A stretch of 43,023 bases of DNA from a candidate division WOR-3 bacterium (GCA_026986535.1 JALSOK010000066.1:1-43023); one strand, 5' to 3'; counted from the stretch's first letter, positions 671 to 42,182 are shown. The notes: generated from the letters alone by a model not told the origin. Numbers and translations: made by a program.

Positions 671-676
671 TAAAAT
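671..676 (+). promoter_or_regulatory. -10 box TAAAAT, 6 nt before the ATG at 683 (leaderless-type)
   Basis: gtttaaaattccgggATG; no strong SD between box and ATG. Confidence 0.65.
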
Positions 677-682
677 TCCGGG

Positions 683-1393
683 ATGCGCATAGTTGCCCAC
701 AGGGGATACAGCCACTTCTATCCGGACAACACCCTTCTGGCATACGAAAGGGCATTCCAGGAAGGGGCAGACTTCATAGAGGTGGACATAATGATTACAT
801 CGGACGGATTCCCGTTCATACAGCACAACCTGCTCATGGAAGGCAAAGCGGTAAGGGAAATGGAGCTGGAGGAGGCGCTGTACATAAACTGGGATGCTCC
901 ATCCATGCAGGAGGTAATGGATCTTGCCCGGGCCTACAGGGGCGGAATATACCTGGATGTGAAGGACAGGGCTATCCTCAGCATAATGGAACCCATACTC
1001 AAAAGTCTGGAAGGGCTGGAGGTGGTGGTTTCATCATTCGACGGTCCATTCGTTCGGGAAGTAAAGAGAATCGGCAGAAAGGTGCGGACCGCCCTGCTCA
1101 TAGGCTCGGTGTACGATGCCGGATTCATAGTGGATATAGCCAGACACTATGGGGCCGATATAATACACCCCGCATGGGAAAGCCGCCACCCATATCCCCA
1201 TCATCTCCTGAGCGAAATGCTCCCCGTATTCAGGCGGGAAGGTTTCGAGGTCTCGTCCTGGCATGAGGAGAGGGAGGAGGTAATAAGGGCCCTGATGAAC
1301 ATGGGGATCGATTACATCAGTACGAACGATGTACCCCTGGCTGTTAAAATAAGGAACCAGATGAAATCGGAGGTTGGAGGCAATGGTATATGA
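683..1393 (+). CDS. Glycerophosphodiester phosphodiesterase (GDPD family)
   Basis: IVAHRG, PDNTLLAY, GADFIEVDI, C-terminal GIDYISTN. Confidence 0.9.
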   Translation: MRIVAHRGYSHFYPDNTLLAYERAFQEGADFIEVDIMITSDGFPFIQHNLLMEGKAVREMELEEALYINWDAPSMQEVMDLARAYRGGIYLDVKDRAILSIMEPILKSLEGLEVVVSSFDGPFVREVKRIGRKVRTALLIGSVYDAGFIVDIARHYGADIIHPAWESRHPYPHHLLSEMLPVFRREGFEVSSWHEEREEVIRALMNMGIDYISTNDVPLAVKIRNQMKSEVGGNGI

Positions 1394-2198
1394 TGTGTTT
1401 TCCATCCCGTTCGACAAGGCGGTGATATCCCGCCCCGGTGCCCGCTTCGCTCCCCAGAGGATAGTGCAGTACCTGAAAAAACTGCACCTGCCCCCGGATA
1501 CCACTTTGAATTTCATAGAACCTCCCGAGGACTTCAACCGTCTGGATGTCCGGGTGGCCCACGAGAGAATCTACGAATGGATTAAAGGGACCCTGAGGGA
1601 CGACGCCTTTCCAGTATTCCTGGGTGGAGACCACTCCATCACCTTCCCCCTTTACAGGGCAGTAAAGGAAAAATTTCACCTCGAAAGGCTTTACATAATC
1701 AACATAGACGCCCACTACGACATAAGGGACTGGAGCGAGGAGAGCATCACGAGCGGAACCCCTTTCAGGAGGATAATGGACTTCGGTCTTGCGGACCCAT
1801 CCCACATAATCGAAATAGGAATAAGGCCCATGTCCAACAGCCCGGATCTGGAGGAAAGGGCAGGGGAAATGCACATATTCACCATCGATGAGGTGAAGGA
1901 AATGGGTATAGATGAGATATTGAGGAGAGTTGAGGACACCGTGAAGGGTTATCCCGCGTACTTCACATTCGACATGGATGTTATGGAAGGGGGATGCTGT
2001 CCGGGATCGAGCGCCGCCCATCCTTACGGCCTGTCCATGGAGGAGGCCCTGAAGATAGTGGAAGCGGTCGGGAAGATAAATGTGGTCGCAATGGATATAG
2101 TGGAAGTGTCCCCCCCATGGGACATGGATGACATGACCTCGAAAGCGGCAGCGTATCTTGCAGGAAGATTTATCAGGAAGAGGTCCTCAAAGGTTTAA
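1383..2198 (+). CDS. Ureohydrolase (agmatinase/formimidoylglutamase family)
   Basis: PGARFAP, GGDHSIT, DAHYD, SGTPF, FDMDV, DIVEVSPPWD. ATG at 1383 follows GGAGG. Confidence 0.88.
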   Translation: MVYDVFSIPFDKAVISRPGARFAPQRIVQYLKKLHLPPDTTLNFIEPPEDFNRLDVRVAHERIYEWIKGTLRDDAFPVFLGGDHSITFPLYRAVKEKFHLERLYIINIDAHYDIRDWSEESITSGTPFRRIMDFGLADPSHIIEIGIRPMSNSPDLEERAGEMHIFTIDEVKEMGIDEILRRVEDTVKGYPAYFTFDMDVMEGGCCPGSSAAHPYGLSMEEALKIVEAVGKINVVAMDIVEVSPPWDMDDMTSKAAAYLAGRFIRKRSSKV

Positions 2199-2212
2199 AA
2201 TTTCCCGAATCT

Positions 2213-2914
2213 ATGAGCAAAGAAAAGAGTTCCCTCCGGGAGAAGATAGAATCCTGGGTGTGGACCATCCTCATCATACTGCTTCTGCGGGCATTCGTTG
2301 TTCAGGCGTATGTTATACCCACCGGATCGATGGAGGATACCCTGCTTCCGGGCGATTTTCTTCTGGTAACGAAGTTCGACTATGGACTGGAAATACCCTA
2401 CACCGGAATTAAGCCCATAACCTGGGGCACACCGCACAGGGGGGACATAGTGGTATTCAGATACCCATTCGACGGACGGGATTTTATCAAGAGGATAGTG
2501 GCTCTTCCCGGTGATACTGTAAAGATAAGGAACAAGGTGGTTTACATCAACGGAAAACCCCTCAAAGAACCCTACGCTGTATTTAAGGACAGCACCGTAT
2601 ATCCCCTGCCCCCCGATGTGGACACATCGCTGGAGACCATGCAGAGGCTGTGGCTATCCCATAAGTTCATGATGGGAATGAATTTCATAAGGGACAACTT
2701 TGGACCTGTGGTGGTTCCACCGGAGCATGTTTTCGTAATGGGAGACAACAGGGATTTCTCATACGACTCCCGGTTCTGGGGGCCCCTGCCCGTAAAGGAC
2801 CTGAAGGGCCGACCCCTTATAATTTACTTCTCATGGGACTCGGGAGGACCCCCCTGGAAGATATGGGAAAGGATCAGATGGAAAAGGCTTTTTAACTTCA
2901 CGAGGTACTGGTAA
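2213..2914 (+). CDS. lepB: Signal peptidase I
   Basis: N-terminal TM, IPTGSMEDTL (catalytic Ser), FIKRIVALPGD (catalytic Lys), GDNRDFSYDSRFWG. Confidence 0.97.
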   Translation: MSKEKSSLREKIESWVWTILIILLLRAFVVQAYVIPTGSMEDTLLPGDFLLVTKFDYGLEIPYTGIKPITWGTPHRGDIVVFRYPFDGRDFIKRIVALPGDTVKIRNKVVYINGKPLKEPYAVFKDSTVYPLPPDVDTSLETMQRLWLSHKFMMGMNFIRDNFGPVVVPPEHVFVMGDNRDFSYDSRFWGPLPVKDLKGRPLIIYFSWDSGGPPWKIWERIRWKRLFNFTRYW

Positions 2915-3126
2915 TGAAACTGAAGGAACTGCTCCACCGCGTGGAAATGAGCATGGTGAAGTACAGCTACGAGCAGAAGAGGAAGAGGGTCCTCGAGCAA
3001 CTGGGCGAGTACTTCTACGGGCTCTATATAACCGGGAAAATAAGGGAAGTTCCCGCAGATGTGGAGGAATTGATTCGAAAGCTCCAGTATATAGAGAACA
3101 AATTGAAAGATATGGACCATGAATAG
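2914..3126 (+). CDS. Small helical hypothetical protein (70 aa)
   Basis: Overlaps the lepB stop (TAATG) and the next start; charged, helical composition; fills the operon gap exactly. Confidence 0.7.
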   Translation: MKLKELLHRVEMSMVKYSYEQKRKRVLEQLGEYFYGLYITGKIREVPADVEELIRKLQYIENKLKDMDHE

Positions 3127-3598
3127 ATTGGCGGGCATTTTAATCGCAGGTATAATGATTCTGGGCCTTCAGGGATGTGCTTTTCTTCAGAAGAGGCTTG
3201 CGGTAAAGGACCTGAAGATCGATTTTCAGGGGGTAAGCGTAACGGCCCTTACGCTGGACAAGATCAATCTCGAAGTGGCACTCGAAGCCTTCAATCCCAA
3301 CGATGTGGAAGCCATAATCGACAGGCTGGATTACACCGTATTTATAGAGGACAGGAAGGCCATGACGGGATATACCGACAGGACCTACAGGATATCCCCC
3401 CACGGCAAAAAGCTCATCAAACTGAATGCCACCATAAGGCTGGTGGATCTGCCGGATGTGTTCCTTGCCATAAAAGAGGCCGCAAAGAAGAGTAGCGTGA
3501 AGACCTCGGCCGATGTAAAAGTCCATGTGAAGACCATCCTCGGAACATTCACGAGGACGGTGAAGCTGGAGAAGTACATCCCCCTGGAATGGAAATGA
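3119..3598 (+). CDS. LEA type 2/WHy-domain lipoprotein
   Basis: Lipobox LQGC; NPN motif followed by LDYTVFIED. Confidence 0.8.
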   Translation: MNRLAGILIAGIMILGLQGCAFLQKRLAVKDLKIDFQGVSVTALTLDKINLEVALEAFNPNDVEAIIDRLDYTVFIEDRKAMTGYTDRTYRISPHGKKLIKLNATIRLVDLPDVFLAIKEAAKKSSVKTSADVKVHVKTILGTFTRTVKLEKYIPLEWK

Positions 3599-41173: not shown

Positions 41174-41188
41174 GGTTACACCTCCTTT

Positions 41189-41479
41189 TTACTCTTCGAC
41201 TACTCCAAGTATTTCATCTTCCCTCATGATGAGGTACTTCTTATCCTCTATCTCCACTTCGGTTCCGGCGTACTTGGAGAAGATCACCACATCGCCTTCC
41301 TTCACATCTACGGGTATGACCTTTCCATCCTCCGTCTTCCTGCCGGGCCCAACAGCGATGACCTTACCCTTCTGGGGCTTTTCCTTTGCGGTATCCGGAA
41401 TTATGATTCCGCCCTTCTTCACTTCCTCTTCCTCTATCCTTTCGACCACAACCCTGTCGGCAAGAGGTCTTATCTTCAT
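41189..41479 (-). CDS. groES: Co-chaperonin GroES
   Basis: [35 protein letters not shown]. Confidence 0.99.
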
Positions 41480-41520
41480 GGCTTCACCTCCTGTTTTGGA
41501 GTACCTCCGATTGCCCTAAA

Positions 41521-41550
41521 ATTTTAAAGGGAGGTTAACTTTTTATGCAA
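41521..41550 (-). promoter_or_regulatory. Sigma70-type promoter of groESL
   Basis: Minus strand TTGCAT-N18-TAAAAT. Confidence 0.6.
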
Positions 41551-41649
41551 CATGTTAAGTTCCGAAACCCGGGCCGCAATGAAAACGCCATGATCCCCAT
41601 GGATTTGCCCGCAGGACTCATGCTTCTCCAGATTCGTTTTCCAGAGCGG

Positions 41650-41678
41650 AATTTTACAATTCGCCCCATTGTAAAATT
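41650..41678. repeat. Perfect 11-bp inverted repeat containing back-to-back TAAAAT boxes
   Basis: AATTTTACAAT-tcgcccc-ATTGTAAAATT. Confidence 0.85.
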
Positions 41679-41684
41679 TGAAAC

Positions 41685-42182
41685 ATGCCGCTGAGTGCCC
41701 TCATCATATCCCAGATTCAGCTCCAGCCGGTGGAGCCACCCGGAAGCCCTGGACCCGAAAGGGCGTCCGGCACTGCAATGGAGTCTCCATCCCGCTCCCC
41801 CTCGAGATTCCCCCTGTTCCAGGGAGGGGAAAAGCTGAACCACATGATAGACAGCCTCATCAGGATGGGCTTTCACCCCGTGAGGAGCAACGATTACGCA
41901 GTGGGAAGTCTCCAGTGGAGGATAGACATGTCCGCAAAGGGCTACAGGGTGCAGGAATATAGAGCGCAGGGCGTGAGGGAAGTAGTGCAGAGTCTCGATA
42001 TGGAGACCGGAAGGAAGGAGCTCATAAGCACGGACCCGATGGACATATCCCTCATTGTGGTCCGGGACACGGGGAACAGCATAGTGGAAGCCTACCTGAT
42101 ACGCAGAATCCTGCACCGCTACAGGACCGGAGAAACCGGAACGACCACCATAATCGAGAAGTTCGTCAGGAATCCGGATTGA
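41685..42182 (+). CDS. Hypothetical, probably exported protein
   Basis: TAAAAT 7 nt upstream, short hydrophobic N-terminus, Pro/Ser linker, genome-typical codons. Confidence 0.7.
   Translation: MPLSALIISQIQLQPVEPPGSPGPERASGTAMESPSRSPSRFPLFQGGEKLNHMIDSLIRMGFHPVRSNDYAVGSLQWRIDMSAKGYRVQEYRAQGVREVVQSLDMETGRKELISTDPMDISLIVVRDTGNSIVEAYLIRRILHRYRTGETGTTTIIEKFVRNPD

Follow-up and report, generated by a model that had tools for sequence, protein, structure and literature searches.

How are genes started when an AT-rich box ends only a few nucleotides before the start codon and leaves no room for a Shine-Dalgarno (SD) sequence? This question is raised by a stretch of 43,023 nucleotides from a candidate division WOR-3 bacterium (JALSOK010000066.1, assembly GCA_026986535.1), which was analysed at its full length and is called the window in what follows. 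A preliminary description of the window had proposed that a box of the type TAAAAT, placed just upstream of many ATG codons, is a promoter -10 element, and that the genes behind it are probably expressed from leaderless mRNAs. The window is contig C66 of a metagenome-assembled genome (MAG) of 1.74 Mb in 160 contigs, with a completeness of 96%. We followed the box through the window, this genome and its relatives. Judging from the sequence evidence set out below, we consider it likely that the box is the -10 element of the sigma-70 factor RpoD, and that about one third of the genes would be expressed as leaderless or near-leaderless mRNAs.

Results

A box at short distance from ATG codons

In a count that uses no gene calls, TAAAAT occurs 1126 times in the genome. 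The next ATG lies at a gap of 6, 7, 8, 9 and 10 nt in 103, 73, 38, 66 and 52 cases, respectively, against a background of about 8-24 per gap; the reverse complement gives a flat distribution. The stop-free TATAAT boxes are followed genome-wide by ATG at the same gaps in 33, 41, 19, 26 and 32 cases. A matrix built from sites of this genome gave the extended consensus cTTTAAAATTT, a rigid T-flanked 11-mer. Its 1975 matches have an ATG at gaps 6-10 in 218, 167, 82, 119 and 80 cases, a total of 666 against about 93 expected, the latter being the figure for a gap bin five positions wide and the matrix having been trained on gap-6 and gap-7 sites taken from our own gene calls. Box-proximal ATGs that open reading frames (ORFs) of at least 100 codons amount to 562, compared with 58 at a control offset, an excess of about 500.

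The preliminary description had expected TANNNT to peak 6-8 nt before starts across the genome; the enrichment is indeed sharp and spans 6-10 nt. In both the TAAAAT and the matrix counts, the gaps form two peaks, one at 6-7 and one at 9-10, separated by a clear dip at 8. The in-frame TAA of the box does not explain this dip, because TATAAT boxes show it too. Almost all of the surplus start codons behind the box are ATG (GTG, 58 after the box and 44 at the control; TTG, 22 and 28), which agrees with the dependence of leaderless translation on AUG. Operon-internal genes with an SD motif start with ATG in 233 of 271 cases. When SD-led starts were counted around GGAGG, this motif was found to be frequent inside genes.

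Within the window, TAAAAT followed by ATG after 6-10 nt was found seven times (1.33 expected), and TTTAAAATTT with at most one mismatch 21 times (1.9 expected); none of 100 shuffles reached 7 or 21. By coordinates read by eye, the TTTAAAATTT matches lie just 5' of genes and tRNAs in agreeing orientation, two of them being opposite-strand overlaps. The 11 boxes first listed have the coordinates, sequence and gap given to them, and each is followed by an ATG. The longer gaps of lepB, prs, dcd and M23, the boxes 12-15 nt before four tRNAs, and the combination of box and SD leader at groES, korA and rplY were also found as reported (Table 1). As claimed, no SD fits in the short spacers between box and ATG. 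The description of the surroundings as GC-rich DNA does not stand, since the window has 48-55% GC and the genome 51.8%.

Share of box genes and choice of start codons

Genes were called with a crude, self-written program combining ORFs and hexamer statistics, which yielded 1611 genes covering 88.9% of the genome. A box of at least 9 bits lies 5-11 nt before an ATG candidate in 549 of the 1611 genes, compared with 76 at a control offset of 25-31; at thresholds of 7 and 11 bits the counts are 564 versus 110 and 501 versus 59. The share of genes with a box near ATG is about 31-34%. Gap 6 (190 genes) and gap 7 (120 genes) are the largest classes among the 549. Box genes occur on all 62 contigs of at least 10 kb (14%-83% per contig, median 34%) and, as every such contig carries them, the signal does not come from a contaminant. 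Coding sequence makes up 89% of the genome, yet only 55 of the 755 matrix matches of at least 13 bits fall within called genes.

That several longest-ORF starts are wrong, as the preliminary description had it, is borne out: the box-proximal ATG differs from the longest-ORF start in 151 of the 549 box genes. A TTG is the longest-ORF start in 76 of the 151, and it directly follows the box hexamer in the cases inspected (the putative outer-membrane protein, or OMP, glyA and M23). At gaps 6 and 9 an upstream start is impossible, because the box then places its TAA as a stop in frame with the gene. In GDPD, lepB, SHMT, carbamoyltransferase, SDR and prs, counting from the box-proximal ATG, the Pfam domain sets in after 2-9 residues. 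Pfam also agrees with the gene names of the preliminary description, except that "OMP" and gene 41685 have no Pfam hit.

Single genes illustrate the choice of start. For the fadD-like gene, the longest-ORF TTG at 7091 was rejected as start. For glyA, the TTG at 16662 was likewise discarded as start; the same-genus genome described below has TTC there, yet keeps CTTTAACATTT and the ATG. The GTG at 35129, which opens the longest ORF of dcd, is an unlikely start. The hexapeptide acyltransferase gene (12761-13233, minus strand) is frameshifted: the frame from ATG 13233 stops after 42 codons and the gene continues in another frame. In the same-genus genome there is one intact ORF beginning at the equivalent ATG, so that the start first proposed for this gene was right, and a C-run in our genome lacks one base relative to it. 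The frameshift would be due to an assembly error or else to a true mutation.

Distribution of the box over transcription units

The box had been taken as transcriptional from its presence before tRNAs, and its distribution in the genome points the same way: it precedes tRNA and rRNA genes and avoids operon-internal genes, which use SD. A box lies within 60 nt of 40 of the 49 tRNA and transfer-messenger RNA (tmRNA) genes, at a distance of 8-18 nt from the mature 5' end in 36 of them. Of the nine box-less genes, eight are directly behind another tRNA or tmRNA gene, the ninth being a tRNA-Ser on contig C69. Upstream of the 16S gene there are two TTGACA-17-TAAACT promoters in the same cTTTAAACTT context.

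Among protein genes, the box precedes 220 of the 390 with a divergent upstream neighbour. Behind a same-strand neighbour it is found before 109 of 215 genes at intergenic distances of 11-40 nt, 83 of 167 at 41-100 nt, and 73 of 214 beyond 100 nt. Only 22 of the 445 genes lying 10 nt or less behind a same-strand gene have it, while 271 of the 445 have an SD-like motif. The 3' end of the 16S rRNA is GGATCACCTCCTTT and keeps the CCUCC tail; SD pairing is therefore available, and it is used inside operons. Boxes are present on both sides in 60 of 195 divergent pairs, 13 of which have an intergenic region of only 31-49 nt. Promoter and stop codon overlap at 31 of 287 same-strand box-led genes, where the upstream gene ends on the TAA of the box.

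The promoters had also been called -10-dominated, and the matrix logo carries no information at any position further upstream, where a -35 would be. In a set of 548 box genes, TTGACA-like hexamers are enriched only at spacers of 16, 17 and 18 nt (8, 21 and 14 cases; other spacers have about 4), so that 43 of the 548, under a tenth, have a -35-like hexamer at this distance. A scan for classical two-hexamer sigma-70 promoters over positions 12000-31999 of the window gave 18 sites, compared with 18.3 in shuffles; it recovers only two of the boxes, because most boxes lack a -35. The genome encodes an RpoD-type sigma factor of 549 aa (Sigma70_r3, 94 bits), which presumably resembles the E. coli factor in regions 2.4 and 4.2, and a second sigma factor of 277 aa.

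Conservation among relatives

A genome of the same genus (G001) has about 84% DNA identity to ours, with gene order mostly shared over the compared stretch. Between positions 12000 and 32000 of the window, 13 sites were compared, and G001 retains the box in 12, the OMP box being only partly covered by the local alignment. At several kept boxes (glyA, two tRNAs and korA) the upstream flanks or the spacers have diverged, and for glyA and the two tRNAs alignable sequence sets in only at the box or shortly upstream of it. In G001 the carbamoyltransferase box (30358-30363) is not kept, while that of the neighbouring SDR is; the start or the promoter of carbamoyltransferase may differ between the two genomes.

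The other relatives were compared by counting TANNNT at gaps 5-10 before the first ATG and at two control offsets, in samples of 12-100 kb; these samples are small and the kin are not independent. The signal is present in our own family (G001, 7/24 genes, 29% vs 0-8%; G002, 31/85, 36% vs 19-20%; G005, 9/18, 50% vs 17-22%) and in one genus of a sister family (G015, 20/45, 44% vs 0-2%; G013, 6/12, 50% vs 0-8%). The signal is weak or ambiguous in G009 (28% vs 21-22%), G025 (31% vs 12-20%) and G029 (3/12 vs 0). The sampled stretches of four other class-level families (G020, G027, G030 and G023) had no TANNNT signal, and those of six phylum-level families (G052, G037, G071, G076, G040 and G078) no clear one, with 2 versus 0 among only 13 sampled genes in G078. 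The 11-mer matrix trained on our genome finds almost nothing in the sister family represented by G015 and G013. Since TANNNT does find a signal there, the flanking Ts are family-specific and the leaderless layout is wider.

The glyA gene can be followed across these groups. Relatives at genus, family and order level have the box and then ATG before this gene, as does a Candidatus Caldipriscus record, and an SD leader is present in G020, G026 and G023. A sister genus of the same family (G002, G005 and G003) has 27-30% GC, compared with 52% here; the two of its genomes that showed the TANNNT signal, G002 and G005, are at 28-30%. This low-GC genus keeps cTTTAAAATTT before glyA, at gaps of 6, 6, 7, 10 and 10.

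Sites in the window

The sites are collected in Table 1. Only 6 nt separate the box of the dsbA-like gene from the tRNA-Val(cac) 3' end (12622), and the whole arrangement is kept in G001. For the product of gene 41685, a metagenome scan returned only four weak partial matches (53% identity over 30 residues). A plus-strand ORF of 666 aa (39527-41527) shadows groEL (39542-41173, minus strand) and is almost certainly not a gene.

Table 1. Boxes of the window with the genes they precede. Gaps run from the end of the hexamer to the ATG or, for tRNAs, to the mature 5' end.
Feature	Positions	Strand	Box	Gap (nt)	ATG	Remarks
GDPD	671-685	+	TAAAAT 671-676	6	683	Pfam GDPD position 1 at residue 6
lepB	2196-2215	+	2196-2201	11	2213	Implied leader about 4-5 nt; Peptidase_S26 profile position 2 at residue 9
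tRNA-Val(tac)	4583-4601	+	4583-4588	12		
fadD-like AMP-binding enzyme	7097-7111	+	TATAAT 7097-7102	6	7109	
dsbA-like thioredoxin	12601-12615	-	TAAAAT 12610-12615	6	12603	Box and ATG kept in G001
tRNA-Val(cac)	12696-12717	-	12712-12717	15		Kept in G001; TTGTCA 18 nt upstream of box
Hexapeptide acyltransferase	13231-13247	-	TAAAAT 13242-13247	8	13233	
DUF4476 protein	14702-14718	-	TATAAT 14713-14718	8	14704	
Putative outer-membrane protein	15365-15379	-	TACAAT 15374-15379	6	15367	Label from the preliminary description, no Pfam hit; TTG at 15373 belongs to box flank
glyA	16654-16668	-	TAACAT 16663-16668	6	16656	
korA	18579-18608	+	18579-18584	21	18606	Leadered, GGAGG in leader
uvrA	24101-24132	-	24127-24132	23	24103	Leadered, GAGGGG in leader; absent from the preliminary description
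rplY	27467-27510	-	27505-27510	35	27469	Leadered, AAGGAG in leader
prs	28469-28489	-	28484-28489	12	28471	Pribosyltran_N position 1 at residue 7
tRNA-Ala(tgc)	28576-28594	-	28589-28594	12		
Carbamoyltransferase/SDR divergent intergenic	30346-30394	both				43 nt (30349-30391), two back-to-back boxes
Carbamoyltransferase		-	TAAAAT 30358-30363	9	30348	Carbam_trans_N position 1 at residue 2
SDR		+	TAAACT 30379-30384	7	30392	adh_short position 2 at residue 4
dcd	35115-35136	-	35131-35136	13	35117	
tRNA-Ala(cgc)	35215-35233	-	TAAACT 35228-35233	12		
pgpA	37169-37185	-	TAAAAT 37180-37185	8	37171	Longest-ORF ATG at 37198 lies upstream of box
M23 peptidase	39475-39495	-	39490-39495	12	39477	TTG at 39489 abuts box
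groES	41477-41526	-	41521-41526	41	41479	Leadered, AGGAGG in leader
Gene 41685 (165 aa, no Pfam hit)	41672-41687	+	TAAAAT 41672-41677	7	41685	

Discussion

We propose that the box is the -10 element of the housekeeping sigma-70 factor RpoD, in most copies without a recognisable -35. The sequence shows the motif, where it lies, that it behaves as a promoter, how it depends on operon position and that it is conserved, whereas the sites of transcription start and the way ribosomes load are inferred. The hexamer ends 6-10 nt before ATG in about one third of the genes and in more than half of the clear transcription-unit heads. RNA polymerase usually starts about 6-7 nt after the -10 hexamer. At this usual distance, gaps of 6-7 would place the start of transcription on the A of the ATG, gaps of 9-10 would place it 2-4 nt before the ATG, and gaps of 11-13 would give leaders of 4-7 nt. 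Because there is no room for an SD, ribosomes would have to load on a 5'-terminal AUG. Operon-internal genes and some first genes (groES, korA, rplY and uvrA) use ordinary SD leaders. The bases around the predicted start are consistent with this proposal. RNA polymerase prefers a pyrimidine-purine start context, and among the 190 genes of gap 6 the ATG is preceded by C in 66% and by T in 14%, so that the purine at +1 follows a pyrimidine at -1. Among the 98 genes of gap 9, purines are most frequent at spacer position 7 (63%), which suggests a 2-nt leader.

Several points weigh against this proposal. That transcription would start at the ATG or beside it follows from the distance usually found between a -10 element and the transcription start. 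Gaps of 9-13 nt imply leaders of 2-7 nt, which are not strictly leaderless. Transcripts reading through from upstream promoters may exist, and the carbamoyltransferase box is not kept in the same-genus genome. Moreover, the box helped to choose the starts, and this makes the gene share, the operon-position counts and the inside-gene counts partly circular. The plain TAAAAT count is independent of gene calls, and so are the matrix count and that of ORFs of at least 100 codons, except for the training of the matrix.

The same observations could be read in other ways. The box could be a signal for the ribosome on leadered mRNAs, one that binds ribosomes or enhances translation independently of SD (for instance as an unstructured, A/U-rich landing site for ribosomal protein S1), similar to the motifs of the Bacteroidota genomes in GeneMarkS-2 group B. 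The box does sit at the position of a ribosome-binding site, its spacers hold no SD, and WOR-3 may be related to the FCB group (Fibrobacterota, Chlorobiota and Bacteroidota). In that group non-SD initiation is common, according to the section of PMC6028130 that deals with it. Group B motifs precede first and internal operon genes alike in the account given there (PMC6028130), whereas the box is nearly absent before operon-internal genes, which here have SD. Furthermore, the same box stands before genes that are not translated, namely most tRNA and tmRNA genes and the rRNA operon, in the latter with a perfect -35 at 17 nt, and -35-like hexamers are enriched only at the promoter spacers of 16-18 nt. 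Bacteroidota promoters have TAnnTTTG at -7 and TTTG at -33, together with non-SD initiation. Our genome resembles them in having an AT-rich, T-tailed -10-like element and many genes without SD. However, TAnnTTTG has 280 sites genome-wide with a flat distance to ATG, the rRNA promoters are canonical, with TTGACA and a 17-nt spacer, and RpoD is a long canonical protein of 549 aa. We regard a ribosomal signal as very improbable.

It is somewhat less improbable, and still unlikely, that the box is a promoter but most mRNAs have short SD-less leaders, with transcription starting a few nucleotides before the ATG or with the start codon lying further downstream. The two peaks of the gap distribution with their dip at 8, the purine peak of the gap-9 class and the gaps of 11-13 nt at lepB, prs, dcd and M23 would fit such leaders. 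However, the two largest classes are gaps 6 and 7, with a pyrimidine before the A; Pfam domains begin within a few residues of the box-proximal ATG, and the in-frame TAA bars an upstream start where the gap is 6 or 9. Studies that map start sites usually class an mRNA with no more than about 5 nt of leader as leaderless. As for an artefact, a spurious signal could arise from the AT-richness of DNA between genes, or from longest ORFs being delimited by the in-frame TAA of the box, and counts made relative to longest ORFs do show a 3-nt periodicity (6, 9 and 12) that is partly expected from the in-frame TAA. Nevertheless, the motif-centred counts, which hold no ORF information, give the same peak, the stop-free TATAAT boxes peak too, shuffles never attain the observed counts, and the stretches sampled from relatives of similar GC show no peak over the control offsets (G027, 9/65 vs 6-7; G052, 8/65 vs 7-11; G030, 2/45 vs 1-2). 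An artefact of composition or ORF definition is thereby refuted, and we give it practically no credence. Expression from a -10 element, with leaderless or near-leaderless mRNAs, is the reading we retain, and each sequence-based check proposed in the preliminary description favoured it.

A leaderless layout is an expression style already known from other bacterial groups, and no new mechanism is involved. Group C of GeneMarkS-2 comprises 1028 of 4769 bacterial genomes, mainly Actinobacteria (773/859) and Deinococcus-Thermus (37/38), with a Pribnow box about 10 nt from the first operon gene and 25-50% of operons predicted to be leaderless, as described in the sections on this group in Lomsadze et al. 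2018 (PMC6028130). Measured against those sections, our genome is alike in having the box at 220 of 390 unambiguous first genes and SD at internal genes; it differs in its lineage, apparently WOR-3 (Caldipriscota), and in a rigid T-flanked 11-mer instead of the loose TANNNT of the high-GC groups. In the parts of Zheng et al. 2011 (PMC3160421) on TA-led genes, a TANNNT about 10-12 bp upstream of the start is taken to be the -10 box of leaderless genes; the signal is more informative (TAtaaT) in groups of medium GC, Aquificae among them, and TA-led genes make up 20.7-32.4% in Aquificae and 35.9-46.1% in Deinococcus-Thermus. Our share of about 31-34% is similar to these. Unlike that work, as far as those parts go, the present case concerns another lineage and draws on tRNA and rRNA promoters, operon position and same-genus footprints besides the motif. 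In Mycobacterium and Deinococcus, more than 25% of transcripts are leaderless (Cortes 2013, Shell 2015 and de Groot 2014, in the passage of PMC6028130 that cites them). Those cases were proven by differential RNA sequencing (dRNA-seq), while ours is read from sequence. The promoters in those organisms are reportedly -10-dominated, with no clear -35. A full-text literature search found no paper joining "leaderless" with "WOR-3", and neither "leaderless" nor "promoter" occurs in the text of the WOR-3 genome papers PMC12285271 and PMC12542636.

The genome is tentatively placed near Ca. Caldipriscus in WOR-3. In a quick tree of a single gene, GlyA, with 92 rows, a Candidatus Caldipriscus sp. record is sister to two same-order kin of our genome (SH-aLRT 99), and the group they form lies inside the clade of its class-level kin (support 93); a GlyA scan of genome contigs returned mostly distant phyla. 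The 16S rRNA gene (contig C72, 38326-39885) has 63.5% GC, compared with 51.8% for the genome. High GC in rRNA usually goes with thermophily, and the value would fit a Caldipriscus neighbourhood. Caldipriscus belongs to Ca. Caldipriscota (NCBI taxonomy), a name for which WOR-3 is also used in an excerpt of PMC12285271.

What is new here is the lineage, the rigid 11-bp box and the absence of the signal from those parts of sister families that were sampled. Only two sister families seem to have the trait. We see an even chance that these two WOR-3 families near Caldipriscus moved most of their transcription units to leaderless, -10-only promoters with a rigid 11-bp box. If so, leaderless initiation would have been gained or lost outside the phyla classically known for it, at a point bracketed by the phylogeny, with orthologues such as glyA caught in both states, box or SD leader. 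A -10-only layout would also allow divergent pairs to lie 31-49 bp apart and the TAA of the box to double as the stop of the upstream gene. Relatives with and without the trait could be compared to learn what drives the switch between SD-led and leaderless expression. In practical terms, tools that assume SD or the longest ORF will mis-call starts in this MAG and its relatives. As the promoters would be readable from the sequence, a nearly complete map of transcription units could be drawn for an uncultured lineage, which would join Actinobacteria and Deinococcus-Thermus among the bacteria with frequent leaderless expression.

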